A DNA stretch of 64,000 nt from Psammoneis japonica. Lineage: Eukaryota. Positions within the stretch are counted from its first letter, which is position 1. Every line of letters begins with the position of its first letter. Shown here one piece after another: positions 4,043 through 42,935 of the stretch. Position numbers and translations under genes: made by a program. The stretch is from contig QPGO01000015.1 of the NCBI GenBank assembly GCA_008632985.1, positions 435,998-499,997 of the forward strand, given 5' to 3'. The notes beneath the pieces are model-generated. The model had not been told where the DNA came from, did not search any database, and saw only the letters and a program-made list of their open reading frames with translations.

Positions 4043-4215
4043 TGCAAGCTCAAGCTGAAACTGATGTCAAAACAAAGAAGTGAGTAGACCGAAGAGAGGG
4101 CGGGGAGCCTACAGTAAGCGTTAGCGAACGCTGGCGAGCCTCTCTCAAACGGCTACGTTAATCTAATATCCAAAATTTATACTATATATCAGAAGCGTGC
4201 GAGTGAGTTGCTGCA
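4043..4215 (-). repeat. 3' LTR of the Gypsy element (173 bp)
   Basis: Direct repeat of 9333-9496, differing by two small indels (9 bp in total) and one substitution; adjacent to the PPT. Confidence 0.95.
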
Positions 4216-4338
4216 CTCTTCCCTTCCATGATCCGAAAGAACTAGAGGATCATGCAAAGGGCCAAAAACCAAGGACCAAAACCAAAAGTAAAGACAATAA
4301 CAGGAGGAAACCCAGATGTTGGGAAGAAAACCCCCTGA

Positions 4339-7300
4339 TCAACCGCGAAAAGGAATCAGGCGCCGAATGTCAAGGTGCTCAACCACATGAGGAGCTCGAC
4401 GAACCGAGAGCGTGCCACTTGCATGCACTTGAACAATGGGACAAGGACCATGAGCACGAGGCTCGAGTCTGGATGGCTCAATGTACTTGATTAGAACTTG
4501 ATCACCCACTTGACAATCGCAGGATCTTCTCTTGGCATCAGCTCGTCGCAAGTTGTCGTTGATCAGCGTCTGGCGATGGCCTTGAATCGTCAACAAATCC
4601 GCCAGCACTGGGACATCCAAAATCATGTCACGTCCGAACACCACAGCACCTGGTGAAATCTGTAAGGAACGGGAAACAGCACAGCAGGTTGCATGCATTG
4701 CAGTTGCCAAAGCATCGTCCACGAGGCCAGCTGCACCCTGAAGGTTTTGAGGTGGATTAGAAGCAATGAGCGCGCGCAATGCATTGCCGACAGTCTGGTG
4801 CATTCATTCACAAATAGCGTTGGCTTGAGGGTTGTATGAAGCAGTCAGCACATCATCAATTCCAGCTCGTTGCAATGGCATCTGAAACTCACACCCGGTG
4901 AACTCGCCGCTGTCATCGTGGATGCATCGATTCGGTCTGGGACAGCGTGCAAGCCAGCAGTTTTCGAATTGGTTGGCAACATGTCGAGCAGTTTTATTCT
5001 CAATTCTCACCAGTTCAACAAGATTGGAGACAGGATCAATGCAGGTCAACGCCCGAAACTCAATCTCTCCATTTGGTGCTTTGATTTTCCACGGGCCAAT
5101 GAGGTCAACCGCCACTTCCGACCAGGGAGTCAATGGAGCTTCTCGTTCGGGCAGCTCTCCATGGCCAGGACCCAAAGTTTTGTTACGTTGGCAATCAGCA
5201 CAAGAACATTCATCACACATGCGACGCAACCCAGGGTGATGACAATGAGCCTGGATTGTTTCACGCATGCGCTGGCTTCCGGCATGGCCAAGGACGAGAT
5301 GATGCCACTGTAAAATGTTGGGCACAAGCGCAGTCGGCAAACAGATTTTCCACTGTCCTGGAGGATCATTTGGTTGCATGCGATGACACACAAGCAGTTG
5401 ATTATTCACACATTCCATGAGGAAACGATCAGGGTGAGCAATGCGCATCTGGTTCAATTGTTGGTCCTCGAACTGGCACTCTTGAATCCGTTGTAACGTC
5501 ATTGGATTTTGCATCTCCTGCATCGCAGGGTAATTCAAAAAGGAATCGAACAGTTCCGGCTCATCAACAAAGAAAGAGAAGAAGTGTGAGTGGCCTTCAT
5601 TTTCAATGTTGCGACAACACTTGAATCGGCACGCGCCGAGCTCCAAGTCCTCATCGCGGAAATCCTCGACTTCGGATGGTTCCTCACTCGGCACCAACTT
5701 CGAATCGAGCGGAGCAAAATCAACAACAGTTCCTTTGCCCGGAGCCAAGCTCTTCCCTTCAGAGGGAGGATCCATGTGAGGCAAACGAGAAAAACAATCA
5801 GCCAAGACATTCAAGCGGCCTTCGACACAATGGAATTGAGGGGCAAAGTCTTCCAGAAAGAGGCGCCAACGGAGCACACGTTGTGAATTTAAGGTGCGAA
5901 AGGCAAGGTTCTTGTGGTCGGTGAATGCATGCAAGTCACCGCCAAGGAGCATCGTTCGGAATTCACGGAAGCACATGACAATGGCCAAGAGTTCTTTTTC
6001 GATCGTCGAGTGGTTTTGTTGCTGCCGCGTTCAGCTTTCGAGACCAGCATGCAATGGGTTTTCCGTCTTGTACAATCACTGTGCCCATTTGGCAATCACT
6101 GGCATCGGCACAGATGTGGAAGGGTTTGTCATGATTCGGATGCGCCATCAACGTCTCGGCCGCTAGCACTGCTTTCATCTCTTCGAACGCCGCCTGACAA
6201 TCTGCTGTCCACGTCCATGAGCCTTTGCCTGTGAGATCTGCCAAGGGTTTCAACAAGTGAGAACGCCGAGGCCACATGTTGCGACAGTGTGTCACAGCAC
6301 CAAGAAATGAACGAAGCTGCTTGACATTTTCCGGAGGTTGCACTCGCAGAACAGCTTCCACTTTCTTCTTCCAGGGACGAATTCCAGTCGGAGTCAGCCA
6401 ATGCCCAAGGAAATCCGTTTCCTGCACACACCATTCACATTTCAAAGGGTTCACTTTAAATCCAGCTTCTTTCAAACGTTGCAGGAGTTTGTCGAGACGA
6501 GCAAGGTGAACATCAAAATTGTCATCAAATTGAGCGAGATCATCAATGTGCGCGTCAACGTCCAAGTCATGTGCAGTTTTCTCAATCAAGTGTTGCGCAA
6601 CATCCGGAGCCGGCTTCAAACCCATTGCCAGACGGCAGCATCGATGCTTTCCAAAGGGTGTCACGATTGTCGTCAGATCTTTGGAATTGTCATCCAGTTC
6701 AAACGTACAGTGCATCATTGAGAGATCCAACTTTGTAAGAAATTTGCACCCGGCTCTCTTTTGCAACACATCTTGGATGATCGGCAAGGGACAAACCTTG
6801 CGCTTGAGGGCTTTGTTGAGTTCCCGAAAATCGCTGAGCCACCGCACTCGACCATCTTTCTTCGGCCGAATAAAGGCACCTGCAGCCCATTCCGAAGTTC
6901 CGGCTTCTTCAAGAACGCCAAGAGCCACTGAGTGATCCAATTCTCGCTTGAAAGTCTCGAGATCATTGTGCGGCACCGCATGCGCTCGAGAATGGTGCGG
7001 AACGGCGTCAGGATCAACATCAAGGTGAACTTTTTCGCCAGCACACTTGCCAAGGGTGCCATCAAAAAGAGCAGTGTGTTTTTCCAACACGAGACACAAT
7101 TTCTCTTGCTGTTCGGCAGTGGGATGCTTCTGAGCTGAAGCTGCTTCAGAAGGGGACGTCTCCTCATGCTTTGCATCGAGGATGTGGCCATCCCACACAT
7201 CATCATCATTAGCTGGCTCATCAGTCAAATCATCGAGCCATTGCTGGATGCTAGTCCGCTGATTCCTCGGCTTCATCGCAATGCTTGAACCGAGCCACTT

Positions 7301-7831
7301 GACAATTCCGTGTTCGAAATCCAATGTGACACCCGCTCTCGCCAAGAAGTCCTGTCCAAGGATCATGTCACATTGGCAGGGTGAGTCAAACACATGCGCA
7401 TGCATGCCATCAACATGTTTGGTCTCATCAAATTCAGGGAGCACCAAGTCCTGCAGTCGAACATAACGAGTTGATTCGAATTCTCCTGCCATTGTCCCAA
7501 ACTTTGCACGAATCGGTCCTGTCTCTTCCAATGCTGGAACCGCTCCAACCGGCAACACCCGAGCATGAATCATTGAATGGGTTCCACCGGAATCAAGCAA
7601 CACCCGCATCACGCGCTTGCTTTCCTCATCTTGAATGAATCGTGCCACGAATGAGGTTGCAGGGACCACATTTAATGGTTTGGTTGGTTTTGTTTTTGGA
7701 GTTGGTGCAGCGCACTCAAGTCCCACATCGTCTTCGTCATTCACAGTGCAATTTCCGAAATCGTCATCATCAAATGAATCAGCAGCATGTGCATGACAAT
7801 CATCAATGCAGTCAGCACAATCATCAAACAT
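4339..7831 (-). pseudogene. Gypsy pol (protease, RT, RNase H, integrase), frameshifted, with Tyr codons converted to His/Cys
   Basis: Protease LLDSGG. RT DFRELN, TPFGK, (Y>H)IDD, FLGH. RNase H DASD, SRKL, TDHKNL, NVLADCFSR. Integrase HLVLGH..CADC, DLIGPW, NPQANAICE. GP(Y>C) motif. Confidence 0.9.
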
Positions 7832-7882
7832 GTGAGAATCAGGAGCGACACACTCGGACGACAGCTCTTCAAGCTCATTGGG

Positions 7883-9097
7883 TCAGCATCGACTGCGTCC
7901 CGAGAAGCGACCACCAGGTCGAAAACTTCCCGTTCCACCTCGATGCTCTCAAGGCCCTCCTGTCGAATCAAGATGATGGCTTTCAGCAGACCAATCATTG
8001 GGAGGAGCCGTTCTGGCCGGATTGCCGTAACCGCCGCCATCTGCATTGGTTCGGGTGTCGTTTTGACATTGCATGTAAGAGCCACCATCATCATGATGCT
8101 CGCCGCTGTTGCCGCCAGAGTCACAGTTTCCGCGACCACCGTAGTTTCCTCGGCCACCACCATGACCTTGACAGCCACGGCCTTGCCAACCACAACCTTG
8201 TGCTCCGCCATGACCACGACCTCCGCCTCGACCGCCACCTCGACTGCCACGGCCACCACATCCGCGACCTCCACGATCAGTTCTTGGACGGCAGTTGTTA
8301 GAATCGGGATTCATGACGCAATCTTTCCACTTGTGATTGTGAGCATGCAAAGGACATTGAGATTCTGGGTCAACACGATTGCCTTTCTTCTTGGTGGAGC
8401 CGCCACCTTTCGACTGTCTGTCTTTGCGCTTCTTCGAAGTCTTCTTGTTCCCATCTGCAAATGATTTCTCCGTGCTCATGCACGTGACAATTTCCGCTGA
8501 CGTGTCATTTCCAATCGTGCATCCTGCTCTTGTGCACATCTCGCGCCACGACAAAGGGAAGCCATCGAAGATCATCTTCTTCTTCTGGTTCTGAGTGACA
8601 ACTGGATTATTTCCCGGCAACTTGTTTGTGTGTCGCACCAAGGTCTCCATTCGATCCGCGTGTGCCTGCACTTCAACATCGTGTGGCTTTTTAAGAGAGA
8701 GCAAGTGTTCAATCATCGTGTCACGCGCTTCAGTTTCACAATGTGACAAATAAAAACGAGCCAATTCTTGGTCAAAACGAGCCACCGTCTTCTGCGCATT
8801 CGGAATCGCCATGGTGAGATTGGACCATTTGTCTTCAGCGGTGTCTGTCAACACTTCCTCGAAATCATCAAACAGTTCTTTGCCTGCAGTGAATTCAAGT
8901 TTTGCAGCCAGTTTACGAAAATGATCTTCCATGAACAACAACACTTCAATGCCATTGGTTCCATCAAAACAAGGGCACTTCTTCGCACGCGTGCTACCAT
9001 CATCATGCGATTGAGTCAATTTTGCAAGTTCCAAATCCGAATGAGCAAATTTCACAGCATGCAAAATGCACGGTTCTTTAAGGCTCTCGCGATTACT
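7883..9097 (-). pseudogene. Gypsy gag with zinc-knuckle-like motif and Gly/Arg-rich tail
   Basis: ORF 7949..9121 contains CPLHAHNHKWKDC and a GRGG-rich tract. In-frame TGA codons at 7949-7951 and 7883-7885. Confidence 0.8.
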
Positions 9098-9332
9098 CAT
9101 CAGGCCAAGTTGGTCCTCCAAGAAACTGCTTCAAGCACTCTACCTTCGACTCGAGTTGTGCAACCCGAATCGCCAAATCCTGTTCGCGTTGTTTTCGTGT
9201 CTCCTTTTGCCGTTTTTGTTCCAAAGCCCAACTCGCTGCCTTCGCTCTCAATGTTCTTTTCTCTTGTTTTGTAAGCCCATTGGTTGTATCGTTGTTTCTC
9301 ATTCAGCTCTTTACAATCGACTGTAATTACAG

Positions 9333-9496
9333 TGCAAGCTCAAGCTGAAACTGATGTCAAAACAAAGAAGTGAGTAGACCGAAGAGAGGGGAGCCTAAGC
9401 GTTAGCGAACGCTGGCGAGCCTCTCTCAAACGGCTACGTTAATCTAATATCCAAAATTAATACTATATATCAGAAGCGTGCGAGTGAGTTGCTGCA
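9333..9496 (-). repeat. 5' LTR of the Gypsy element (164 bp)
   Basis: Direct repeat of 4043-4215; contains a TATA-like tract (tactatatat). Confidence 0.95.
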
Positions 9497-13349: not shown

Positions 13350-15808
13350 TCAAGAATCGATTGTGTGAGATCTTGATTTCGAACAAGGCGCCTTCCTTGA
13401 GGCCGCACAAGGCGCAATTAGACTTTTGATGCCAACCGTTCCTTCCGTCTTTGAGTGATTCAAGAGAATCTGCTGGATCCCTGGTCGGTCTCGACAACCA
13501 CTGTGGATGTGAGGCCGGCATGAAAAGAAGGCCTGAACAACTAGCCAGTCTCCATTTTCACACCCGTGTTGATGACCCAGACCCAGAAAAATCCCTTCTT
13601 GTAACTTGCAAGACTTCTGACAGTTTTGAGCACAGACACATGATTGGTGGTTAAAAGCATCTGCCTCAAAAACTTTCATGCTGACGCACCCAAGAGTTTG
13701 AAGCGCACTTGATTGAATCTGAATGGGCCAAAACATGGAGCACACTGTCATGCCCCAATCAAAGATTGCAACATTCATTCCTTTCTGGTGGAGTGCAGAG
13801 CATGCAGCCACCACCACAACAAGGCCAGAAACACCATCCCCTGCATGCAATTGTGACTTTTGCATTGAGTTCAACCTTCAAAACTGTTTTGCTTGGGGTG
13901 TGACCTCACTTTTCTTAACTGCCTGTGCTGTCCACCCACTTTCTGCACTTCATCTGCTGTCTCTGGTGTTCTCAAGGGTCTTTGGCCTCACAGAAGCAAG
14001 CTTCCACAACCAAACTCACTTCTACATCAAAACATGATGAAGTGCTCAAGAGGACAAAACAAAAGCAACAGCGAGTCCAGTTGCCCTGCCACCATTCCAA
14101 GGAAACAAGCAAGCATCTGCTCAGTTGTTGGTGAACACAGATCCTGGAGACTTCTGTCTAATCATTCCACCCACCACACAAAAATGGTGTGTGCTGGCAG
14201 CAGGGGACGAGTGTCATGCCAAAAAGTGAAAAGTTCTTTCATGGCTTGCACACATGCTTCCACATCACAACACATCTTTGCTTCAATCACCAACCATCTG
14301 TTTGTCATCAATGCACATTTTGAACACTGTCCTTTGCACAAGTGCAGAGACTTCAACCAGCTCACCCAGCAACCATGAAAACACTCTCATCCCTCTGATC
14401 ATTGCCTTTCTTGGCTTTGGGACAATCTGCTTTTGCTCCTGTGGCACCCTGCTTTCAACATTTCCATTTGCTCTTCTTTTTGCAAACAACATGCCAATTT
14501 CTTGATCATCTTCATGGAGCTTTTAATTTGCTTTCCTTTGGATTTCTGCTCCCAACACATGTCAAAAATTGCAAAGCATTTTTGTGGCCATCTCGGGGCT
14601 TTTCATTCTCTGAGGTTGAACACACAGCCAAATTTCTTCTTGCAAACACCATTCAACAACACGGCGGGGCTCGACACTTGTTTTTTTTTTCAATGTCAGC
14701 AGCCCTGTCAGGCTCAAAGACATGCTGGCACTCCTTTTGGCCAGCCTCGTCATTGGCACAACTCCTCCACAAATCCTTTTCACAACCTCTGCCAAGCCTG
14801 TGAATTGCTTGCAGCAAGCCAACAGGTCCCAATTGTCCCCTTGCCTGCAAGGCAATGATGCCCTCCATTTCTTTGAAGCTTGAGGTGGTCTGGGCTTCTT
14901 TTTGTGCACAACATCTAATTTCTTTTTCAAGACACTGCAGCTCTTCTCCAAGCTTTCAACTCTGTTCAACGCAGACTTGTCACACCAGCTTGTCACAACA
15001 GTGAACACCTTGGCTTTGCAGTCAGAGCACCTTGGCTCATTTTTCACACACTGATTGCACCACTTCTTGCCCCAGATTGCCCCCTCTCTTTCCTCTTTCA
15101 CCACCAGTCTTGGGATGCTCAGGTTCAGAAAATGCCGTTTTTTGTGAAAGCAACACCAGTTTCCATGTTGTTGCTCTGTGCACACACACTTGACAACATG
15201 CTCAGCTGTCTTCTTGGCAGTGGTCTCATCACACTCATTGGCCCCAGCTCTGCCAGCTGCAATGGCTTGCTTGTGCACCTTCACAGCTGCTCTGTTGCCT
15301 CGCCAACTTGCTGTTTTTCATCTTGACTTGCTCACTTCTTTGAGAGCAGTGGCATTGTTTCCAAAGGAGATGACAAGCATCTCTTTCCTGTTGCTCATTC
15401 TTCAAACAGAGCATCAAATCTTCCCCAGCCACTCATTTGGCCAGAGCAACAAATCTCTGCAATGACTTTGTTGCTTCAGCCAGCTCAAAGGCTCCACAGT
15501 CATTGATGCACTGACAAAATTTTAGACTCCTCTTGACTTCCTGGCCAGCTCTTTTCAGCATGCACCAGCTTTTGGACAATGCACAGCCCCTGGAAACTCC
15601 TTCTGTCTGTTGAATCCACCACAAATGCAGCATGCTCTGACAGCCACACTGGCTGAGGGTTGCTGCAAAAAGCAAGAATTTTTTCATGGCTCACACATGC
15701 TTTCACATCAAACCACACATTTGCTTCAAAATTGCTGGCTGTCCCTCCACATTGTCAATTTACATTTTCCAATGTCAGCCATGTGCATGACATTGTGTGC
15801 TTTTCTCT
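13350..15808. mobile_element. Old degenerate repeat-derived sequence, family unassigned; left part of the domain interrupted by Copia
   Basis: Nearly devoid of both TpA and CpG, with many Cys/His-rich overlapping ORFs. Continues into 22890+ when the Copia element is removed. Confidence 0.5.
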
Positions 15809-16084
15809 TGACAGAAATTGAAGGCAAGTGGCAAGAATTCAAACAATGACTCCTTGCTGCTGTCTAAACAGCAGATGAGTCTCCGCTCAGAGACCGTCAC
15901 AGGAGCCAAAAGATGTGCAAGTCGGCACAATCGGGCTGCTGTTGTCATTCTTGTGAGCCTTGTGGCTCAAAAGCAAACTACATCGCGCGCGAACGCGCGG
16001 AACTAAAGCACACAAAACTGTGCATGGCAAACTAAACAGCGTGGGACATTTTGCGCGCACCCAAATCCTGTTCAAATCCTGTCA
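15809..16084 (-). repeat. 3' LTR of the Copia element
   Basis: Ungapped direct repeat of 22614-22889 (offset 6805). Confidence 0.95.
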
Positions 16085-19000
16085 CTCCCCAGTTTGCTTG
16101 AAGAGTCACAGAAACAGATTCGACTTCAGATGGAATGAAGTTCCAGAACATGAGGGGGCGGAGAAGGTCCCAGACTTGGGAGCAACCCCAATGCTTGCTG
16201 AGAATGTCAGCAGGGTTGCAGGAGCCTTCGATGAAGTGGAGCTCAAGGCAACCAGAGGCAATTGCCTCACGCACACGGTGGAATGACAGTGTGGTGTGTC
16301 GCTTGTGTAACTTGGAGTGCGGGATGGTGGCACTGTCTACAACCGACTTGTTGTCACTGAACATGCAACTGATGTCACGGATCGGGACGCTGAGGCAGCG
16401 CAGGGTGATGCGCAGGTCAACAATCTGCTCGACACAAGTCCTTGCGGCAACAAATTCAGACCCGCAGGTCGCAGTCTCCACGGTGGCTTGCTTCTTGGAG
16501 AACCAATCAGCTGGGAATTTGTTGAGGAAGTGGAGCATTCCCATGACAGAGCGTCCGGTGAGCATGCAATGGCACAAGTTTGCATGGACGCAGTGGGTGG
16601 CAGTGACAAACTTGCCAAGGGGTGGTGGAGCGTCCTTCAGGATCATCTCTTCTGCTTCGCCACACACGGAATGCATCCATTCACAGGCCGGAGCAGGGAG
16701 ATCCGAACAGTCGGGCTCTTCTGTGGGAACGCGGAGAGTGCCGTGTCGCATCTTGGAGAGGTGCCCACAGACGCGTTTGGCACGATCCAAGTGGCCTTGA
16801 CGGGGTGCAGCTCGGAAGCTAGAGAGTGACATGACGGCCGTGGCAATGTCAATTCGACCAAGGGACACTGCCCATTGGAGTGAACCAACAAGAGACTGGA
16901 ACTGTTGAATGCCATCGGGCCCCAGCAGTTCGGAAGTGTCCAGTTCGGGGTGGTCACCCTTCTCCAGAGGTGACAGGGCGTTGGTGGCAGGCTTCTCCCC
17001 AAACAGTCATGTGTGGCTGTTGACCATGCGTTCAATGCACTTGCGCGGAGACAGGCACAAGGTGCCATCAGGATCCCGGGAAAAGTCGCAGCCCAGATGG
17101 AACTCAATCGGTCCCGCACCCTTGAGCTTGAACTTGTGCTTTTCTGTGAGAGCATCGATGAAAGATTGAGGGTCCTTCATGGCAATGGCGAGGTCATCCA
17201 CACAAACGGCAATGCATTCGCAGTGGTCGCTGTTCCTGCGCATCCAAATGTCGGGTTCGGCGCGGCAGGGGAAGAAACCTTCAGCTCGCAGGCAGTCGGT
17301 GAAGCGCTCGTGCCAGCGGAGGCCGGAGCTGCGCAGTCCATGCAGGGCCTTGTGGATGACAAGAATGTGGCCTTCGAGTTTGACAAATTCGGGTCCAGCC
17401 ACAATGCACAGCTTCTCTTTGGTGGTGGCTTCAAGGCAGGCATTGCCAATGTCGGTGGCCCATGTCTCCAACTCGTTGAGTTCGGCCAGGAAAATCATCA
17501 GTCGAAGGCCACGGAGGGAGACTGCTCCGGAGTGGACACCATCGATGGGCACATCCGTGAGGTGCCCATTGGCTGCGAGTCGTGCCTTGTGGCGAACGTC
17601 GTGCACGAGGTGCACTCGGATCTTCTTGTGTCCCGCAGGAGGAGTGGAAGACTTGGAGGGCCCGCAGTCATGGAAGACTTTGTGTTCATCGAGTTGGTCC
17701 ATCTCGAGATTAGTTGCGTCTCCCCATTTGCGGTTGCCGTTGCGTTCGTCTGGTGACATGGCGTGTTTGTAGTTCCGGGGAACTTCGCATCCGCACTTGC
17801 AGCGAGGTGCAGTGCGGAAGGAGCGAAGCTTGGCTTGGTTGGCCATGTGGAACAGCTTCTTCTGGTGCCTCGCGATGGTGCGGAACCGCTTCCAGCCATC
17901 AGTGTCGAGAAGTCCGTTCTCTCGTGCACAGATGGCGCAGGTGACAGGGTCGTCCTTGGCGATGATGGCAAGAGGCTCGGACGTGATCTCCCCACTTTCC
18001 CATTCAAGCACAATGTTGTAGCTTGAGCCTTTCCAGGTTGGGTCATGAGGCTTCAGAGGTCCTTCGTGTGACACAATGCGTCGAAATTTCCAAACAGCAG
18101 TGTCTTTGTCTTCTTGCTCAATGTGATTCATGATGTTGTTGCAGGCCAGGACTTCCTCACATTCGTCGTTGTTGACAGAGCAGACGAACTCAGTGAGCTC
18201 GGGGTTGCCGTTCACTTTCCATTCGTGGTCTTCGACGGCCTTGACGATGCATGCTCTGTGGCGTTGTCCGTCCTCTTGTGGCTGCATGAGGAAGGTGCGT
18301 CCGATGATGTCTTGCGGATCGAAAACTGGCATCTTGGGTGTCCTGATCTCCCCATTGGGTGAATCGACGGGGTTGTCGTCATGGTGAGATTTGATGATGG
18401 GTTCAGGTGGCTCCCCATCAGGAGGATCAAGATGCAGGTTTCGAGTGGCAGGATCGGTGGCAGCGGATCGTACGTTGGACCGGCAGAGGATCTTCTGAGT
18501 CTCGTCAGAGAGCATCTTGAAGGTCATCTGGTGGCCGACGTGCTCAGCAATGCCAACAAAGCGTCCACGCAACTCACGGGATTCGGACGGCCAATCGGAG
18601 TCATCGAGGTGGAAGCACATGGGTTCCCACCAGTGAAAGCGAAGCAATGGGCTGATGTCCGGGGTGGAGCCAGTGAGAGTCTCGAGGGGCGTGCGCCAGT
18701 GGAGACGTGGGGACGCTGCATGGTTGAGTGTGAAGCACACACACATGAGTGCCAGCAGCCATGTGTGGGCAGGCGAACCGAAACGGTCCATGACAGTGTT
18801 TGCCACGCGCTTCACGGTCTGGTGTCGATGTTTGGCAAAGTTTTGGTGTTGCTGGTGAGGCTCACTTTGCCAGCTGGAGACAAAGAGGGCTCATAGGATC
18901 CCGAGCACCTTGTTGCTGATCTCAACTTGAGCACGGTTGCCAATGAGTTTGGATGGAGCACCACGCTCACGGATCTGATCCTCGAGTGTGTTGACAAACT

Positions 19001-21699
19001 CTTTGTCCATTTTGGTGCCGCAGACGTCAGTGACGGCAGACTTGGTGCCAACAAACAGTTGGGCGCTGGTGCAACCAGAGTCGACGGCCGGGGTGTCGGC
19101 ACAAATGGTGTCAGTGGCGATGGGCTCATTGCGGCGGTGCACATTAAGGGCGGGGTTGGGCGATTTGTGGGCCTTCTTAAGGTGGGCACCGGCGGGCATG
19201 CGGGCGCACTGCATGGTGCAGTCGAAAGTGCGACGAACCGCATCGGCAGGTTGGAAGCCAAAGCAAGACCGAAGAGACTCGCAGGGGGGGGTCCTTGGGC
19301 TGCACAGTGCGCTCCGGGGGCAGAACGTCGTCGTCCTTGGGGTCAATCGCGTGTGGATGACACTTGTGGAACACGTCGTCATTCGGAATGAGGTGGTCAT
19401 CAAGGGCGGACGCGTGATCGGCAGACAAGGAGGCGGACATGATGGCCTTGTTGACAACGACACGGTGACGGCAGTTGCTGCATTCATAAAACAGGTTGGC
19501 AGTGGGATCGTCCTGCAGGTCAGAGATCGCGTCGCACCACTGGTCGTCGTCAGTGACAGAGTGATCAAGGACGGAAGGATCCCATGTGTCATCACCGGCA
19601 AGGATGACATGGGGCAGGGTGTCCCATTCGGTGTCAGTGCAGGGTCGCATGGCAACATGAGGCAGGCCGCCCTTGATGTCAATTTGGATGACACAGCCAT
19701 CAGGGGTGGTGATGCGTTGCAAGCCGTTGGGCACCTTGACAGAGCGATCGTTGACATCATGTTTGTGCCATTCGAGCTGGCCACAGGAATGAATGGTCTT
19801 GCCCTTTCCCGTGCATGTGCACTGATGGAGGATGGCGATGACGGGACCACGCTGTGTCTCAATGACGGCACCAGCGGTGACAATGGGGATGCCCACCAAT
19901 TGATGGTTGTCAATGCCCTGAACGTCGACTTGGCGAGAGGTGCATGCAATGACGTGAACATCGTTGCCAGCAATGCCGCCGTTGGCTCCACGATCAACCA
20001 GAGCACCAGTGCATGTGGAGCAATGAGCGGAGGCAGAGCAAATGACATTGTGGTTGTCAACGCGGCGGCAAGTGCGGCTGTTGAGTTCCATGTCATCTGT
20101 GGGAGCAGGCAAGGTAGAGGGAGCAGCGGATGGGCCCGGTCGACTGGCGTTGGGGGCTTGGTGAGGAGACAACAGGCGTTGCAGATCACCGGGTGGCAGT
20201 GGCTTGTGCTTGGTGAGGTGCGCCAGAATGGGATTGTCTGAAGTGGCACCCACATTTGGAGCGGGGTCACCAGAGTCAGCAGGAATCGTGTTGGACAAGT
20301 TGACATCACCGTCACTCCCAAGTCGTTGGTCGTGAAGGTTGACCGCAACGGACTCATGGCAGTTGCTGGCTCGCGGGTTGCGGGGAGGCGGACGAGAATG
20401 CTCAAGGATGATCGCCTTAGAGGAATGGGGCAACGAATCCCAAATCCCAAATCCGTTGGTGGTCAGGAGGGAGACGTTTCCATTGGTCACCGGCGAGGCT
20501 GGGACCGCGGGTGCAGGCAGCGTCAGCCTGAAGGACGTCAATGTCGCTGTCGATGTCATAGAACACATCATCGGATGGTTCCTCAGAGTGGACGTCGTGT
20601 GCACACATGGCGCGTCGGGGAGCTCGAGGTGTCGTCTTGGGTTGAAACGTGCTGTCGCATTGAGCCGCCGTGGAGAGGAGCAAGCCACAACATTGATCGC
20701 ATGTGAGGCTCTTGCCACTCTGCGTGCGATGCTGATCAGCTTGGTTCTTGACGGCGCGGAGTTCCTCGACAGGATGCACGGCATTCTCGAGCACTTCTGT
20801 CCTTCAGAGAAGTGGTCACTGGCCGGGATGAGTGCCTCGTGCTTGCGCAACTGGTCCTGCCAATGAAGGATGAACCCGTGGGTCGGACCTTTCCAAGTGC
20901 CATCACCAAGGCGTGCGGTGGTGAGGTGCGTGAGCAAGGTGGAGGACTCGACAGATGCGCGGGTGGAGGCAAGCGCGCACTCGGACAAGGCGCGGCAGAT
21001 GGTCTGGGTGTCAGAAGACCCCACATTTTCGCGAATGAGAGCCTTGCCCTTGTCGGTGAGAAGGATGTGTTCAAAGACGGCGAACATGTGCTTTTGCTGT
21101 TCAGCAAAGAGCAGTTTGTCTTCGGGGCTGGTCGGTTTGTACGACGAGTCTAGAATGCACTTGACGTCTTGGGCACGGGCTTGTGCCACAAGTGAGGTGT
21201 GCCAAGTGTGCCATTGCTTGTCGGATTTGAGAGCCGTGAAAGCAGTGGGGTCACGCTTGATGCCTCGCTTGAAGTCTTGCACCGGGTCGCGTGCCTTGGT
21301 CGGGTTGGTGACATGCGGAGGTGCGAGAGGTGAGCTGCCGACGGACACAGAAGACATGCAGTCGGGACTGAGGCGGCAGGCAAGGAACTCCTCATGCGTG
21401 AACAATGAGGAGTCATTGGCAACATCAAGGCCTTCGTGTGCTTTGACAATGCACAGACTAACTGGAGCTGCCAACATGTTCTCACAACCTCGGGGCAATG
21501 GGATCACATTGGTGCCGTTGTCGCACTCAAGCGAGTCGATTTGGGAAGGTGTGAACGTGAACAGTTCTTGGTGCGAGTCCATGTCGTCATGGGTCAAAGC
21601 CAAATGAAGAGGGCTTCCAGCACCTTGGGCAAGTGCAGTTCCAACAACGTGCTCGAAACCATCGGTTTGTTGCTGACAAGTGAGAACCATGGCAGACAA
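16085..21699 (-). pseudogene. Copia gag-pol polyprotein, broken by several frameshifts, with Tyr codons converted to His/Cys
   Basis: gag FKRGIKRD. Protease ALVDRGANGG. Integrase IATDT..DTPAVDSG, FVNTLEDQIRERGAP. RT HKARLAANGH, DIGNA(Y>C)LEA, KAL(Y>H)GLRSSG, (Y>C)VDDL. RNase H SKKQATVETAT(Y>C)GSEF, DNKSVV, NPADILSK. Confidence 0.9.
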
Positions 21700-22613
21700 A
21701 AGCGGTGTCAGGACAAGCGATTCTTGTTGGGACGCGGAGGTGGACTTGAAACTTGAGTGGGAACAGACTTGACTTGAAATGGACTTGACTTGAAATCTTG
21801 AACCATCTTAAAATCAGAAGTCGCCGGGTTGTGCCACCCCGTTCATTGTTGAGTGCTGAACTTCCCATCCGGTCCGCAGAGTTGTGCCGGCAGGCCAGCG
21901 GCGCTTTGGATTGCTTGCGAGTGGAGCAGCGGGTTGCAAACCCCTGCAGGCAAGCTGACTGGAGGTGGACAAGACCCCAAAACCATTTCTCATTTTACAT
22001 TGGTTGGATTTCCCAATTGGGCTGGCCAGTTGACGCAGGCGCCAGGCGCTGTGGACGAACGAACAAACGTGGGAAAACACCCTCGCCCCAACGCAGGCTG
22101 CAATCACGGCTGCTTGCTCTCACAGTCGTCCTCGTGGACCTGGCAGAACTGTGGAGCACCAGAAGTCCGGGGCAGATCAGGTGCAATGGACTCGGTGTGC
22201 TTGTAAAGTGGCAGCAAAGCCGCAGTCCAAAGAGTGGGTGCAAGTTCTTGGCTGTGAAGATGTGGACACATGTGTGTCTTCAGCGACGAAGATCCTTGAA
22301 TGTGTGGGGTTCTTGACCGTCAACCGTTGAATGGGCACATGAAGGGATGAGGATCAAGGACAGACTTGGACATGACCGTTGCATGCATGTCTTCAGCGAC
22401 AAAAGGCAGCACAATCAATCCAGATGTCCAGCGGCAAGGAGACTTGACGGTGACGTTAACTTCCTGCCGATGCCTGGCATTGAATGCGCGTAGACTTGCC
22501 GATGTACGTAGAACATGTGCGGAGGTCCACGCAGAATTGAAAAGCGTCGTCAGTAAATCAACGACGATGATGGCAGTTGCTCAATGGGTTGACAATGAGC
22601 AAGACTGTTAATC

Positions 22614-22889
22614 TGACAGAAATTGAAGGCAAATGGCAAGAATTCAAACAATGACTCCTTGCTGCTGTCTAAACAGCAGATGAGTCTCCGCTCAGAGACC
22701 GTCACAGGAGCCAAAAGACGTGCAAGTTGGTGTAATCGGGCTGCTGTCATCATTCTTGTGAGCCTTGTGGCTCGAAAGCAAACTACATCGCGCGCGAACG
22801 CGCGGAACTAAAGCACACAAAACTGTGCGCGGCAAACTGAACAGCGCGCGACATTTCGCGCGCACCTAAATCCTGTTCAAATCCTGTCA
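22614..22889 (-). repeat. 5' LTR of the Copia element
   Basis: Ungapped direct repeat of 15809-16084. Confidence 0.95.
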
Positions 22890-22894
22890 TCTCT

Positions 22895-23032
22895 GGTCAT
22901 CAAGCCAAGAGAAAGGGGGTTGCAAAGGTGCACTGCAGGGCATGCCCATCCCCATGCATGACATTGTGGGCTTTTCTCTGGTCATCAAGCCAAGTGAAAG
23001 GGGGTTGCAAAGGTGCACTGCAGGGCATGCCC
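22895..23032. repeat. 85-bp tandem duplication at the Copia target site
   Basis: ggtcatcaagccaag.gaaagggggttgcaaaggtgcactgcagggcatgccc occurs at 22895 and 22980. The start of the first unit (catgacattgtg.gcttttctct) lies left of the element at ~15786-15808, which confirms the empty-site reconstruction. Confidence 0.85.
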
Positions 23033-25170
23033 ACTTTGAAGCAGGCTGGTTTCAGTTGTTTGCTGGGTTGTTGCCGCCACCATTGCATTGGAAAGTTGCA
23101 TGTTCTTGTGCACATTGACCAGAATCCCATAGATTCCCTGCCACCACCTTGGCTGTCAGCACTCCAATGACATGGCACAGTGCAAGCGACTCCAGTCCAT
23201 TGATGCAACATGTGGACGAGATGATCTGCCAGCACACACGCAATGTGCACAGCCGGACATGGACTCATGGTGTTGGCATGATGAAAACAGTCACTGGCAG
23301 GTGAAGCAATTGGGATGTGGGACTGGGCTTGGAATCGCCAGTGCCAAGCAATTGGTTCCCTTTTCACTGTGCACAGACCATGCTGCCAACTCGGAATGCT
23401 GCAAGCATTGATTGCGAACACGCCCATGTCATCGGAGGCAGAACCAACAGGAAAAAATCAACATCTGCACTCATGAGGGAAAAGTGACATGCTTCCCCAC
23501 ACGTGACATTTGACAAGAAGAAATGGATGAAAAATTGAAATTCGAAATTGAGACTTCACAAGCAGAAAAATGATGGTGGGCGAGCATTGTCACCCGGAGA
23601 GATCCACTGAGGGAAAGAAATGTTCAAACAGGCAGGTGGGTGACCAAGAAGGGCATCAGCACTGCCTTGTCAAGCACTCCACAATGTGCCTGAGAGAGAC
23701 CCAAGCAGTTGCAGAGACAAGCCATGAAGGCATTGGATTGCCATCTGAGCAGCCACACTGACATTGACAATGCTGGCAAGCACTGTTGCTCAAGGGAGAT
23801 CCATGATGAGCACATTGTGGACACAAACAGACAGAGAAACAGTTGACCAAAGAGCGGCATTGGTGCCGCTTTGCCAAGTGCTCTGCAATGTCCTGAGAGA
23901 GGCTCAAGGAGTTGAGAAGACGACATGAGCAGCCATCAAGCTCGCTGAGCTTTGATCAACTTGTGGAGCTCAAAAGGTGAATTCCCAGTGTTGTACGTTG
24001 CTCCCTCTGGATCCAGCACCTCACGCTTTGGCTGTAAGATCTTCAAAATGACAATTCTGCAGCAGGGCACCAGGCATCAAGATGACACAATCATCAAGAG
24101 CTTTAGCAGCCTCATGGGTTTGAGAGCACAGCTGGTGCAAAGGGAATGTTTGGATGGGGGTGGCCCATCAAGGTGGACAGAAAGCCATGTTGCAACCACA
24201 CACAAGATCTCTTGTGCTGCTCCCTCTGTGCTGCAGGACTGGGAACAATGAAGGCACCCACATCGGGAGCAGCAGCACCGGGTGTGTCCTCAACAGGATG
24301 ACAACAGAACTCAGTCCAGACTGGTTCCTCCTTGGATGTGGGGAGATCATCATCATCAGACAAGGGATGTGTTGATTGCATCAGGAAGAAATGGATGCTG
24401 TGTGGATCACATTGATCCAGGACAACTGGGCAGTGTTCCTCAAGCAGGACAAGGCACTGTGGCACAGCAGACTGCTGAAAGAACAAAATGGCATGAGAGC
24501 AAGCTTGGAATGTGCATGTGGAGAAATGGAGTCCTCCGGAAGCATTGAGCTTGTTCTCTGCCACTGAACAAGTGCACTCATCAATGTCACATTCCTGATC
24601 CCACTGGCAAAGCCACAGCAATGCCAATGTCAACAGGGTTGACCTCTGCCATGTCAGAACACACATGATTCAGGAGCGGACTGCTGTCAGAGCAATTGAG
24701 TGCATGAACCCTTTGGCAAAACAGTGGTGAATCAGCTGTCTGTTCCGGCCTTGCTCAGTCATTCACAGTTGACCAATTTGGGAGAGACTGGGAGACAATC
24801 TTTCTCCAATTCCTGTGCTCATCCATTGAATGAAGACAAGAATGAAGTTGAAGTTTTGTCCCAAGTGATGGGCCCCTTTCCACCACCATTCATCATTGTG
24901 ATGATGCAAGTTGTGAGGATGTTCAAGAGAACTCAAAACGTGGGTGTGAATTTTGCTGCTTGTTCCAGACCTTTAAGGTCTAAGTGAGTGTGCAAAGATT
25001 GGTGTTGGCCAGACAGAGTGGCAATTCCGACAGGGCATGTGCAGGCATGTGGAGCTGAACGCTGCACATGACAGAGGAAAAATGTTGGCCATGCTGAGGA
25101 AGCAGCAATGACCATGAGCCGCATGATGGCGTAAAAAGGACCTGTCATGGGCAACAAAGTGGGAGAGATG

Positions 25171-25562
25171 GATGGACTGGCCAAGAGATCCATGCTCATT
25201 TTGCCCGTTGGGGCTGAACAGCATCTTAGACCATGATCTGAGGATGTGCTCCTCATGGAAAGGCACCATTTGAGACAGTGTGGCAGAACAGTCAGAGTGC
25301 AAGATGATCCTCGGCCGCCAAAGCAGTCTCCACAATGAGTGGACCCAATCGGGATTTTAGAAACAGATGGACCAGCCAAGAGATCCACACTTGTTTTGCC
25401 CATGGGGACTCAGTGGTGCAGGACCATGATTGTGAGGATGTGCTTCTTATGAAGAAAGGCACCATTTGAGATGGTGTGGCAAAATGGGCCAGAGTGCGGT
25501 TCAATCCTCGGCCGCCGAAGTGGTCCCTGCAGTGCAGCAGACCCAATCGGGATTTGAGAACA
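25171..25562. repeat. Diverged ~195-bp tandem duplication
   Basis: Units start at 25171 and 25366 (gatggac..gccaagagatcca ... aaaggcaccatttgaga ... tcctcggccgcc ... gacccaatcgggattt). Confidence 0.8.
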
Positions 25563-26574
25563 TGTCCCCACATGAAGATGGCGCCACAATGGCACGACCG
25601 TGGTCAACACAAATGGGGAAAAAGGGTGGGAGGTGCACTCACAAGATGGCGCCAAATGGCATGGTGACAAACAGCGCCAATGCACTGGACACTCCCAGCT
25701 GTGCAAGCAGACTGTGCATGGGATTTTTTGTTGACTGACAGGGAGAGGAGAGAAAGCCCATTCAACCCTCATCGTTGGCATCTCCTTGGAGATGCCTTGA
25801 CAGTTCCATGGTGTCTCCCAACCTGCCAGACAATGAGGGATCCCTTGGGCTGGCCTTGTTTCTTGTTTCACTCGCTCATCTCGTCCATCGTCCATCCATC
25901 ATCTCCATCCATCATCCTTCTTCTTCACCCGTTCTCCTGCTTTTGCATGGCGTGACTCTCGGTCCAGCCAAGGAGGTCCTCTCCTTGCTGGGCTTAGCCA
26001 GAGTCTTGGCCACGGCCATTGTCATCGGCCCAAACACACAGCCTGAGGCATTGGGAGGTCATTTCCACCTTTCCACCACTTGGCCACATGCATGTGTCCC
26101 ATGTGGCACCGCCGGCATGGAGAGCCGGGCGTGGCGTTGTTTGGGCCGATGGCAAGACCGCCGATCTCTTTTTCCGTCCATGCCCGCCATGTGTTGAAGT
26201 TGAAGCTGCGCCGTCTGACTTGGGGCTTCATGACGTCATTTACATTTATGGATTCGTACAAGTGCTACAAAAACTCATCAGCACTGCAGAAATCTTTTAC
26301 TCTCTGACTCTATGTAGAATTCTAAATTTTCGATGGCGTGAATTCCCGCGCGATTCCCTGGGCGATCTAAGGAGTTCAACTTGCAATGAAGATCGTGGTC
26401 GCGTGGCCACGTTCAACCACGGTGAAACCAGCTGCAACCACAAAGATTGCCTCAAGCCTATGCTTGAATGTGAAAACACCTGGTGCGATCGTTGTAATTG
26501 CCACGAAGCAAACGGCCTGCGAGTACCTTAACCGCTCTTCAGATTTACAGTTGAGATCGATGACGATTCCAACC

Positions 26575-28194
26575 ATGAAGAAACGTGGGCTTTGTCAACC
26601 AAGGATGGCTGCTGCCGTTGTGCTTGCCTTGTCATTGTCGAAACCAGGCAGAACCGATGGATTCGTCCCGCAACACGTTCACCACCCATCCGTTAGACAG
26701 GACAACGAGAAAGTTGCGCAGCACGTTGAGCTGCAAATGTGGGATAGCAAGCACTCTGATGCTCCGTCGTTCTTGCATGATGCTGCCAAGTTTGTAACCA
26801 CAGTTGCTGCTACTGCGGCGATTTCTGCCGCTCTGGTAATCCCGGGAAGCGCTTTCGCCGAGGACGAGTTGGCAGCCAAATACGGGGGGAAGGGATTCGA
26901 TTCGTCCCTTGTGGATCAAACCTGTTTGGTTGACAAGTGTTCACTCCAGGCAAAAGCGTGCTTGGCAGATGATCCTTCTTGCAGAAAGGGATTGACGTGT
27001 ACCGCCAAGTGCTTGGGAGACAACGCCTGCATCACTGGATGCATGGCCCGTTATGGGGATAAGAACCTCGACAACCTTCTCAAGTGCACGATTGAAGACA
27101 ATGAATGTATCAAGGTTGCCATTCTAGATGGCGGCGCAGACAAGTTTGGAGAGGAACCCAGGGCTCCTGCTCCATCCGTTAGAAACTTTGACCTTAGTAC
27201 GATGGAAGGCACGTGGTACAAGGTTGTGGGGTTCAACCCGAACTACGATTGTTATGCTTGCCAAAGAAACACCTTCAGCCAGCCCGAAGGCGGTGGTATT
27301 TTCAAGGGCGATAAACTCAAAGTAGATGTGGAGTTCTCCATGCCTCACCTCATGCCAGACGGCACGCCGCCTCCACCGAAGAATATGCGGGAATCCATTG
27401 ATATCCGAGAAGAGGACGGGGCTTTGGTTGGGTCGCAGTCGATAGGCTTCAACGATTACGAGACTCATGAGACTATGGTATTTGACTCTGCAAAGCCAAG
27501 TCTGCCCAACCTTGTTCTCGGGAAAGGAACAGACAACGAAGCCAACTATGCCAGAACGGCTCATTCAGAGGGAGAAATGTTTGGTTTAAGTAAGTCTTCC
27601 CGCGAGTCTCTCGAAAGTCGCCTTGTATGTTTCTGAAATTATCTAATATTGTCCTTTAACATTGATATTTCAGAATTCTGGGAAAATTGGTACATTATTG
27701 GTCAGAACGACCCTGGTCAAGACGAGTTCAAGTTTGTCTACTACAACGGCAAGACCCGGCAAAATACTTATGAGGGTGCTTTTGTTTATAGCCGAACTCG
27801 GGACCTCTCAGCAGAATCTATGAAGAAAGTCTACAAGATCGCATCTGATGCCGGAATGAACCCGGATCAATTCTGCAAGATCCGGAATGGATGCTTCACG
27901 GACGAAGCTGGTGCCAACACTCCTGGCGGCAGCATTGGAAGTCCATCGAACCCTTTCAGATCAATTCTGGCTAGCACAAAAGTGTCGCAACTGCTTGGAG
28001 TCGAGCCAGTAGCAGCCCAAAGTGTCACTAAGCGCCAGGCAGTTGCTGCCGAGCTCACACCTTCGCAAGGTGAATCAAAACGAGCATGGTGGTATGAAGT
28101 TGGGGATTACCTAGAGAATCCTCATCGACACTTCCAAGCTATGGATAGTCTGAGAACGACCATGGATTGGCCAGAGGAAATCAAGAGTCAATGA
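26575..28194 (+). CDS. VDL: Violaxanthin de-epoxidase-like (VDL) plastid/thylakoid protein; 2 exons, intron ~27590-27674
   Basis: Signal peptide ending TDG-FVP and a second hydrophobic lumen signal ending SAFA. Cys-rich domain CLVDKC..QAKACLADDPSCRKGLTCTAKCLGDNACITGC. Lipocalin motifs GTWYKVVGFNPNYDCYACQRNTF, ENWYIIG, VYYNG..RQNTYEGAFVYSR. Confidence 0.85.
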
Positions 28195-34990: not shown

Positions 34991-35470
34991 ATGCCTCGTG
35001 TCGCCGCCACTCTCCTTGCCGTTGCCGCACTTGCCGCCGCTTCAGAGGGTTTTGCCCCCGCTGCATTCGGTGTTGCAAAGAGCTCCACTGCACTGAACGC
35101 TGAAATGTCTCGCTCGGACGTTCGCTCTTCCATCAAGGGTTTGACTTCTGAGAACTTCTCGGAAACTTTGTCCAACATCGAGCCATTCCTCACAAAAGAA
35201 GCTGGCGTGAGCACTTATGCCAAGAGTATGAAGAGGATCGCAAGAAAGGCAAAGGAACTTGGCGCGGCAATTCCCGATGGATTTGCCAAGGACGCTGCTG
35301 CCACCGCCAAGAGGAGAGAAAAGCAGGATGCTTTCATCAAGGCCAAGGAAGAAGAGAGATTGGCCGCTGAGGCCGAGGCTGCTGAAGCCGCCGCCGCTGA
35401 GGCTGCTGAAGCAGAGGCCTCGTCTGAGGAAGAAGCTGCTGCAGAAGAAGCCGAACCCGTTGTTGCCTAA
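34991..35470 (+). CDS. Small plastid-targeted protein with Ala/Glu-rich C-terminus
   Basis: Signal peptide ending SEG-FAP, transit peptide ending STALNA; codon usage typical of a highly expressed gene. Confidence 0.8.
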   Translation: MPRVAATLLAVAALAAASEGFAPAAFGVAKSSTALNAEMSRSDVRSSIKGLTSENFSETLSNIEPFLTKEAGVSTYAKSMKRIARKAKELGAAIPDGFAKDAAATAKRREKQDAFIKAKEEERLAAEAEAAEAAAAEAAEAEASSEEEAAAEEAEPVVA

Positions 35471-35651
35471 TAACGCGCTCACCGTTTCCGTGCGTGAAAA
35501 AAGATGTTTGTAGGACGATAAATTAAACGACGCTCATAAAAAGTCTAATGACCAACTCTAACGACACAAAAGACTCTCTACTGTAGTAGGTAGCTTCAGC
35601 CGGCAAAAGGACAACGCATTAACTTGGAATTGTCAAGATGTGGAGTTATGT

Positions 35652-41689: not shown

Positions 41690-42520
41690 CCTTGTTCATT
41701 GCCAAAAAAGTGCAAAATGCATTGTGAGAGTACAATGTGGATGAACCAACACCAGGAACAGCAACATGGACTTGCCGGTGCATCCGGCGCCACTGATTCT
41801 GGAATGAGCGTGTTTGCAGCAGGAGCTGCTGTTTCATTGTTTGAAGTGCCATTGCTGTGTTCCACCTCATTCATTGCCAAAAAGAGCAAAACACATTGTG
41901 AGAGCATTGCACAGATGAACCAACACAACCCACAGGAACGGCAACATGGACACACCAGTGCATCCGATGCCGCTGATTCTGGACCAGGTGAAGTGACACT
42001 GCTCTGATCCACCTTGTTCATTGCAAAGAAGTGCAAAGGGCTTTGTGAGAGTGCATGGGACAACAACAGCAACCAATTGAAACCGCAACACAGACTTGCT
42101 GGTGCATCTGCCGTGGCAGATTCGGTCGCCGGTTCCCGACCCCGCGAAGCTGATTCCGGATCATGTGAAGCAACATTGCTCTGACCCACCTCATTCATTG
42201 CAAAGAAATGCAAAGTGCTTTGAGAGAGTGTGTGGGACAACAGCAGCAACCAATTGAAACTGCAACACAGACTCACTGGTGCATCCGCCGAGGCAGATTC
42301 GGTCACTTCTGCCACCGGTTCCTGACCCCGCGAAGCTGATTCCGGATTGTGTGAAGCAACATTGCTCTGATCTGCCTCATTCATTGCAAAGAAATGTAAA
42401 ATGCTTTGTGAGAGTGTGCAGAACAACAACAGCAACCAATTGACACCACAACGCAGACTTGCAGGTGCACCCGCTGCCGCCGATTCGGGAGCTTCTGCTT
42501 CCGGTTCCCGACCCATTGAC
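41690..42520 (-). repeat. Tandem array of about 5 diverged units (~145-186 bp)
   Basis: ORF 41557..42522 repeats APAS..C..NWLLLL...LSQ..LHFFAMNE..QS.VAS..PESA. Confidence 0.85.
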
Positions 42521-42667
42521 ATGGAATTGGCAGCTGCTGCGACGGTTGTTGCAGTCGAACCCCCCTGCTCTTGACCACCACAAACAGTGGAGAGACTTGG
42601 GAAGCCTTTGAGAATGAGCCCAACAACTCAGGCAACCTCCAATGGGTTGCCTCCCCACTCTCTGCCT

Positions 42668-42935
42668 CTGCAGTCTTTCTGGATCTGGACACAGAAATTG
42701 GAGAAGACGGATGCAACGTAAGTGAACACATCAAAAACAAATGAAGCTCTTTTTGTGCATGCCTTTTTTGAAGAGTGTCACATGTGGTAAAGAACTTTTC
42801 ATGTGTGTGATTCTGAGAGCTGCAGGAACAAGCACCGCCTGCAGTCTTTCTGGGTCTGGACATGGAAATTGGAGAAGATGGATGTGTTGTCAGCGAATGC
42901 ATCAAAAACCAATGAACCTCTTTTTGCACATGCCT
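42668..42935. repeat. ~170-bp tandem duplication
   Basis: ctgcagtctttctgg.tctggaca...aaattggagaaga.ggatg occurs at ~42669 and ~42839. Confidence 0.75.

Follow-up and report, generated by a model that had tools for sequence, protein, structure and literature searches.

A stretch of 64,000 nucleotides from the Psammoneis japonica assembly (contig QPGO01000015.1, positions 435,998 to 499,997; hereafter the window) carries at 15809-22889, on the minus strand, a Ty1/copia retrotransposon with long terminal repeats (LTRs), and the sequence strongly supports a transposon-directed process in this genome that would turn the dinucleotide TpA into CpA or TpG. The reading that we favor, with slightly better than even confidence, is that a pennate diatom carries an old, coding-dead Ty1/copia insertion in its nuclear genome, and that after insertion its LTRs would have diverged almost only at two hypermutable dinucleotides, CpG and TpA, the TpA part through the transposon-directed process. 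CpG would have passed to TpG or CpA by deamination of methylated cytosine in the silenced transposon, and the conversion of the few remaining TpA of the LTRs to CpA or TpG would be the slow tail of a wider process. This wider process would be transposon-directed, two-stranded, A:T-to-G:C and TpA-specific. It would have removed about 90% of the TpA from element interiors, turned Tyr codons into Cys and His codons and erased TAA and TAG stops, leaving host genes untouched.

The element is bounded by a direct repeat of 276 nt (15809-16084 vs 22614-22889, 94% identity). Both copies read TGACAG...CTGTCA, with the TG...CA ends, and the same 5 bp, TCTCT, stand on either side. A Pfam search on the minus strand found RVT_2 (PF07727) in the open frame P0002 with E=4e-19 and 69.6 bits, the cutoff being 31.6. 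With the element read from the minus strand, the left LTR of the window is its 3' LTR, and a purine run ending in GGGGAG (minus strand) abuts this LTR. The parts of the element are given below, with dinucleotide content as the observed-to-expected ratio (o/e).

15804-15808, no strand: left copy of the target-site duplication TCTCT, immediately preceding TGACAG, with which the LTR begins; these 5 bases also stand after the other LTR
15809-16084, minus strand: LTR of 276 bp, the element's 3' LTR and the more CpG-decayed copy (14 CG vs 20)
16085-22613, minus strand: copia interior of 6529 bp with several open frames; TpA o/e 0.08, CpG o/e 0.79
17007-18815, minus strand: open frame P0002 of 602 aa with a copia-type reverse transcriptase (RT); RVT_2 match, CVDD for YVDD
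19177-21699, minus strand: upstream open frame P0001 of 840 aa; 2 Tyr, 32 Cys, 48 His
22451-22613, minus strand: 5' leader adjoining the 5' LTR; 6 TA, o/e 0.56
22614-22889, minus strand: 5' LTR of the element, 276 bp; agrees with the family majority at 5 of 5 polarized sites
22890-22894, no strand: right copy of the target-site duplication TCTCT

P0001 gave no Pfam match, and no integrase was matched by Pfam in P0001 or the remaining frames. The approximately 400 residues before the RT in P0002 aligned with homologues over their full length, with no domain named there. The polyprotein is broken over at least three frames, and this copy of copia is therefore dead. An 85-bp tandem duplication at 22890-23033 adjoins the element, and its second unit holds an intact copy of the insertion site (…GCTTTTCTCTGGTCATC…). 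This intact paralogue of the insertion site, 85 bp downstream, served as an internal empty-site control and confirmed the boundaries of the element. The closest proteins to the copia RT had only 62% identity, the named relatives being from Fistulifera and Nitzschia, and no second copy of the element was found by blastn within the 64-kb window. Diatoms have copia-like 'CoDi' elements, described in PMC2806351, and the present element resembles them.

An earlier reading made from the sequence only had proposed that the LTRs, identical at insertion, diverged in situ at TpA and CpG. Every LTR difference that it named was present where it had been placed, and alignment of the pair gave 16 differing columns out of 276, comprising 15 transitions and one transversion.

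15926-15929 vs 22731-22734: CACA against TGTA, three neighboring differing columns
16033-16034 vs 22838-22839: TA against TG, context CTAA
16062-16063 vs 22867-22868: CA against TA, context CTAA
15914, 15923, 15969, 16024, 16025, 16042 and 16052: CG against TG or CA, seven columns
15943-44: TG against CA pair
15828: AAGT against AAAT
16044/22849: G/C transversion inside a CpG, which the earlier reading did not list

The columns were then divided into classes by context.

CpG in either LTR: 42 columns, 8 differences
TA in either LTR: 12 columns, 3 differences
CA-vs-TG doubles: 4 columns, 4 differences
all others: 218 columns, 1 difference

CG, TA and CA/TG-double columns together account for 15 of the 16 differences, in keeping with the earlier reading that nearly all fall in TA or CG contexts. 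When transitions were placed at random (20,000 runs per LTR), no more than one of 15 fell outside the CG, TA and double contexts in 0.035-0.07% of the simulations; therefore, the context concentration of the LTR differences exceeds chance. CpG columns differed from the others with Fisher p=2e-6, and TA columns with p=4e-4 in a test that presumes TA as the target. In the LTR pair alone, the evidence is consequently graded as strong for CpG and only borderline for TpA. The predicted inflation of LTR-divergence dating was borne out, the 16/276 of the whole pair being about 12.6-fold the 1/218 of the other columns. As a rough control, 78 copia loci from metagenomes were used, 24 of which had terminal repeats; 10 of these were 100%-identical overlaps of 91-125 bp, probably assembly ends, and the remaining pairs may join different copies. 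With this limit, the four metagenome pairs of 94.5-96.3% identity had 2/16, 2/25, 3/63 and 2/21 TA-type differences per union TA, vs 3/6 here.

The TpA evidence that carries the genome-level claim came from outside the LTRs; the window is sharply bimodal for this dinucleotide. 

4043-9496, minus strand: Ty3/gypsy element with target-site duplication CCCAG; LTRs at 4043-4215 and 9333-9496, near-identical and TA-rich
13420-26240, no strand: TA-depleted island between the Cns1/TTC4-like and violaxanthin de-epoxidase host genes; copia plus 5.7 kb of older, CpG-poor sequence (CpG o/e 0.15, 0.30)
40000-45600, no strand: TA- and CpG-depleted island without a recognizable protein domain; tandem repeats of about 175 bp, the copies differing by many CA-vs-TG doubles
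47540-49500, no strand: TA- and CpG-depleted island
Host segments: TpA o/e 0.54-0.61, CpG o/e 0.90-1.02
Copia interior: TpA o/e about 0.07-0.08 (26 TA in 6529 bp), CpG o/e 0.79
Gypsy interior, 4217-9332: TpA o/e 0.13, CpG o/e 0.87
Gypsy core interior, 4300-9070: TpA o/e 0.11
Four blocks of no assigned identity, 13420-15808, 22890-26240, 40000-45600 and 47540-49500: TpA o/e 0.06-0.09, CpG o/e 0.15-0.31

CpA and TpG were raised to 1.3-2.1 in every depleted region. The young elements retain CpG, and the blocks of no assigned identity have lost CpG too. G+C was 56% in the copia interior vs about 48% in host DNA. The depleted islands coincide with copia, gypsy and intergenic blocks lacking domains; the segments at 0.54-0.61 hold 12 recognized host gene families. 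These TA-normal segments encode JmjC, Cns1/TTC4, violaxanthin de-epoxidase, LSM14, mitochondrial carrier and COG4 proteins, as well as Dus, an RlmN-like protein, CRAL-TRIO, LRR and U3-associated protein 6. The COG4-like frame had a best match of 75%, the closest named matches being from Nitzschia, Cylindrotheca, Seminavis and Pseudo-nitzschia (raphid pennates) at about 50-53% identity, and we conclude from such similarity that the host is a pennate diatom. Since the 78 related copia loci from metagenomes had TpA o/e values of 0.35-1.02, TpA depletion is not a trait of this copia clade.

The direction of the change was read from tyrosine codons. A Tyr column was defined as one with Tyr in at least 70% of 31 homologues, and the TAY codons of such columns give an outgroup-based polarity. 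The copia frame P0002 kept Tyr at 1 of 19 columns, with 11 TGY (Cys), 5 CAY (His), one TGG (Trp) and one TTC (Phe) in the others, and kept all other residue classes at 62-100%. Its catalytic YVDD reads CVDD. In the gypsy RT frame P0123, none of 17 Tyr was kept (10 TGY, 6 CAY and one CCA, Pro), and YIDD reads HIDD; over both frames, the non-Tyr residue classes were kept at 54-100%. TGY and CAY thus make up 32 of the 35 replacements at the 36 conserved Tyr columns. On the sense strand, the Tyr codons show 22 A-to-G changes (Trp included) vs 11 T-to-C changes. This pattern is one of mutation and not of selection, and its direction is away from TA in both orientations. The two-stranded mutation of TA that the earlier reading had proposed for the LTR pair is thereby upheld, as a conversion to CA or TG, for the mobile elements of this genome, their conserved Tyr codons now being Cys and His codons.

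That the TA depletion is a sequencing or assembly artefact (miscalls at modified bases), or the result of codon-usage selection, appears very improbable. In some long-read chemistries, base modification at a palindromic dinucleotide might lead to miscalls that are symmetric between the strands. Against this, a contig of 4856 bp and depth 67 matched the TA-depleted flank at 15300-15815, the only part compared, with 0 other letters; from its size and endpoint, this contig should reach into the TA-normal host-gene region. P0119 and P0043, independent proteins from public metagenomes that are described below, show the same Tyr-to-Cys/His pattern. Codon-usage selection was rejected on the loss of conserved and catalytic Tyr and the splitting of the polyprotein into several frames, which amount to decay.

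A matching signature has been described in Bigelowiella natans. In mutation-accumulation lines of this species, two integrated viral regions took up 231 of the 302 nuclear mutations, and 230 of these 231 were A-to-G or T-to-C, all 230 at TpA; the rate was about 6e-7 per site and generation, and only some of the lines were affected (bioRxiv 10.64898/2026.01.13.699255). The authors also report 124 clusters of TpA-poor, CpA+TpG-rich windows in the genome and an enrichment of TpA-poor coding sequences for reverse-transcriptase and DDE domains, and propose an ADAT2-like adenine deaminase acting on DNA as the enzyme. Measured against that account, the two systems are alike in that TpA only is changed, to TpG or CpA by strand, that foreign or mobile DNA only is affected and host genes are normal, and that TpA-poor, CpA+TpG-rich sequence is clustered. 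They differ in host and target, B. natans being a chlorarachniophyte (rhizarian) with viral insertions and the present host a pennate diatom (stramenopile) with LTR retrotransposons, and in degree, since depletion is near saturation here (o/e 0.06-0.13) vs 0.45 in the nucleocytoplasmic large DNA virus region of B. natans. CpG decay alongside, the sparing of LTRs and leaders and the resistance of TAA/TTA contexts go beyond that account. The B. natans process was seen in real time by mutation accumulation, whereas ours was read from sequence. The TpA process here bears the same signature, with a pennate diatom as host and LTR retrotransposons as targets, and by analogy an enzyme may be presumed on the same footing. 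TpA-directed hypermutation was found in the literature in the B. natans preprint only, which is no proof of its being unpublished for diatoms; the diatom transposon papers examined made, in the sections consulted, no mention of hypermutation, deamination or TpA.

Several better-known processes share some of these features. ADARs are known as metazoan enzymes, and fungal repeat-induced point mutation (RIP) is a C-to-T change mostly at CpA that enriches TpA. RIP is alike in being a defence-like hypermutation limited to repeated or mobile DNA, acting on both strands and destroying coding capacity. It was rejected for its wrong direction: the depletion of TpA in the repeats here is 5-10-fold, TA passes to CA or TG, and G+C rises. 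ADAR hyperediting of double-stranded RNA is alike in its A-to-G change with a 5' T/U neighbor, a 5' U preference being noted in the B. natans preprint (bioRxiv 10.64898/2026.01.13.699255). ADAR-only editing would mark the sense strand only and was rejected, 11 of the 33 TA-type Tyr-codon changes being sense T-to-C. APOBEC3 edits retroviral and LTR-retrotransposon cDNA (PMC4866542); it is alike as a deaminase-type hypermutation that leaves dead integrated copies, and its kinetics could spare LTRs. APOBEC-only editing was rejected since strand-specific G-to-A would be expected, whereas the present changes affect A:T pairs at TpA and occur on either strand (22 vs 11). For the CpG part, methylation of diatom LTR elements has been reported, the CpG context resting on preliminary data not shown (PMC2806351), and DNMT5-dependent methylation of transposons is reported as well (PMC9998398). 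Deamination of 5-methylcytosine in silenced transposons agrees with the dominance of CG-vs-TG/CA differences in the LTR pair and with CpG o/e values of 0.15-0.31 in the older islands; it fits less well in that the CA-vs-TG doubles here are unassignable to CG rather than TA ancestors.

Polarity was then sought in other copies of the family, as the earlier reading had suggested. Family letters were taken from Logan contigs of the runs X1-X4, which belong to one sample of one study; 11,613 contigs were compared over 15300-22600, and 40 of the 512 variable places were listed, 5 of them in the LTR. Summed contig depth, which is not a copy number, was about 40,000-100,000 for the element and about 395,000 for the LTR, vs 67 for the unique flank, and the copia family is very abundant. 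At all five listed LTR sites (16024, 16025, 16042, 16044 and 16052), the family majority agreed with the LTR at 22614, so that the LTR at 15809 carries four CpG-to-TpG/CpA transitions and one C-to-G inside a CpG. Family polarization thus succeeded for CpG-region losses, all in the 15809 LTR, and gave none of the TpA sites; the earlier explanation by 5-methylcytosine deamination stands as to the losses and is conditional as to methylation. From the family majority to the window, the 40 listed places comprised 17 C-to-T at CpG, 7 C-to-T elsewhere, 7 transversions and 9 T-to-C, 2 of these at TpA. At Tyr593, the family majority has TAC and the window TGC, and one further place has GTA in the family majority and GTG in the window. 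At Tyr601, the window has CAC, with TGC in about three quarters of the family depth, so that one ancestral TA changed differently in different copies. Because CA-vs-TG doubles can come from TA or CG, as the Tyr601 case illustrates, the ancestry of CACA/TGTA is ambiguous: the TATA proposed by the earlier reading could be right, and CGTA is equally economical.

It is improbable, in our estimate, that gene conversion or recombination with family members brought in the LTR differences, which would then represent family polymorphism. In favor of this, the family is very abundant, and 6 of the 16 differences, including the sole transversion, fall within 29 bp (16024-16052). This cluster, however, sits where CpG is densest in the LTR, and when set against the family majority its changes are losses of CpG, as local decay predicts; moreover, the identical 5-bp duplications argue against recombination between elements after insertion.

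A number of results weigh against the favored reading. The gypsy LTRs hold 13 and 12 TA (o/e 1.1 and 1.04), the most susceptible contexts included, and differ from each other by one transversion and a 9-bp indel only. TA is less depleted at the ends of the elements, with o/e values of 0.23 and 0.31 in the copia LTRs, 0.56 in the copia leader (Fisher p=3e-5 vs the interior) and 0.47 in the gypsy leader. A direction-agnostic simulation, asking for at least 3 of 4 non-CpG transitions that create or destroy TA, gave p=0.042-0.047 for the LTR pair. The three LTR TpA sites are not among the 5 polarized sites (of 16), so that their direction is unassigned, and a 24-mer of the LTR, for which metagenome, viral and genome contigs gave no match, left them so. 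An X2 contig with the family letters at five CpG-region sites spans 16034 and 16062 and shows no variant there among the places listed; at face value, TA would be ancestral at 16033-34 and CA at 16062-63, a weak hint that was counted neither way. The X1-X4 sample is possibly the assembly's own source and hence of no value as independent confirmation. No target of TpA depletion other than retroelements was shown in the window, every identified depleted element being a retroelement, and cytosine methylation as the cause of the CpG losses is itself inferred.

The contrast between ends and interiors allows three readings, namely that targeting excludes the ends, that editing took place at or before insertion, or that dead copies with selected cis-acting ends were mobilized in trans. 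The latter two belong to an alternative that we hold to be doubtful, in which TpA hypermutation came before or during insertion, through a deaminase acting on genomic RNA or single-stranded cDNA in the particle or through trans-mobilized mutated sources, and only the CpG differences arose in situ; the TA-type LTR differences would then be background transitions or CpA-to-TpA changes. It would account for TA loss being concentrated in the interiors of both elements, with LTRs and leaders spared, for the retroelement nature of all identified depleted elements and for an LTR TA class that is borderline when no direction is assumed. Almost identical, TA-rich gypsy LTRs around an interior with 0/17 Tyr suggest that the interior was pre-mutated or the ends protected. 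Minus-strand editing after strong-stop transfer could in principle make even the LTRs unequal. Both strands are affected, however (22 vs 11), and a model at the RT stage needs two substrates; the gypsy interior, moreover, has no 5'-to-3' gradient of residual TA. The non-LTR flank of copia, single-copy by contig depth at 15300-15787, is equally TA-depleted, and TA losses relative to the family majority are copy-specific, both of which argue for change in situ. The B. natans signature, according to the preprint cited above, arises in situ in DNA-virus insertions with no reverse transcription. Tandem repeats in the islands also show two-stranded decay after duplication, with CA-vs-TG doubles making up 36/117, 18/42 and 8/23 of the differing columns (the first two in a 743-bp and a 197-bp pair), CG and TA ancestors being indistinguishable there.

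Sequence context bears on the rate of loss. Among the surviving island TA (n=130), TTAA made up 19% vs 3.9% in host DNA, and GTAA, CTAA and TTAG were enriched too; ATAT was 0 vs 7.3% in host DNA, and ATAC, GTAT and CTAT were nearly gone. This suggests that the process disfavors A after TA (equivalently, T before TA). In the union of the two LTRs, all six TA are CTAA, GTAA or CTAC. The LTR TA thus stand mostly in resistant contexts, which fits slow loss at a CpG-like rate (3/12 columns vs 8/42). For the favored reading, loss in situ as the origin of the three TpA differences of the LTRs would be about an even bet. The earlier claim of mutation in situ, as opposed to RNA editing or an event during reverse transcription, accordingly keeps the B. 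natans precedent and the copy-specific losses on its side; it falls short at the unpolarized TpA sites and the spared LTRs, and editing at or before insertion remains a reading.

The pattern recurs in public proteins. Among 120 copia homologues with a median of 4.2% Tyr, P0119 and P0043 had 0.85-0.88%, and two more had 2.2-2.3%; among 120 gypsy homologues, one had 0.8%. P0119 and P0043, two copies of one copia family whose encoding contigs lay outside the 78 loci, share about 81% identity with a frame of the TA-normal locus L008 (3506-6700), which keeps 33 Tyr, and each has 24 Tyr-to-His/Cys replacements relative to it, Ile-to-Val being next in frequency. Of the 23 Tyr columns common to both proteins, 7 differ as Cys/His and 1 as Cys/Phe, 8 are mutated in one protein only, 5 carry the same replacement and 2 keep Tyr in both. 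Given this disagreement, the hits are independent per copy; the process is not confined to this genome. The public copia and gypsy proteins with this loss comprise P0119, P0043, P0265 and, in part, P0045 and P0122.

Some further observations concern the depleted sequence itself. Across 15500-23200, as in the other depleted islands, erasure of TAA and TAG has left TGA as the sole stop; spurious long open frames occur in all six frames, and copia has 26 of 100 aa or more. The 114 open frames of the other depleted islands gave only Pfam hits below the cutoffs (best E=0.002). At 41637-42514, within a TA/CpG-poor island, tandem repeats of about 175 bp have copies 66-72% identical, about one third of the differing columns being CA-vs-TG doubles. 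A segment at 35001-35500 has 56% G+C and a TpA o/e of 0.17 amid TA-normal host sequence, with open frames lacking a domain. The first kb of the violaxanthin de-epoxidase region (26001-27000), by the island border at about 26240, has a TpA o/e of 0.32-0.38, an intermediate value that may reflect either a spill-over of the process or normal variation.

We give an even chance to the broader proposition that diatoms and other marine protists visible in metagenomes may have a defence that is RIP-like but opposite in direction: an A:T-to-G:C hypermutation that would be TpA-specific and independent per copy, favor TA with no A after it, remove Tyr codons and TAA/TAG stops, spare LTRs and leaders, and continue slowly in situ, with LTR pairs recording it next to CpG decay. 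If true, a B. natans-type process would reach a second major lineage of the SAR group (stramenopiles, alveolates and Rhizaria) and extend from viral insertions to retrotransposons, and a transposon-directed DNA-editing defence would be common to distant SAR lineages and open to study in diatom models. Homology-based transposon annotation is weakened in such sequence, where Tyr codons and two of the three stops vanish, many spurious long frames appear and gene callers are misled. A CA-vs-TG difference, likewise, is no longer to be taken as a sign of CpG decay only, and, if the process is real, every LTR-based age estimate in such genomes would be biased.

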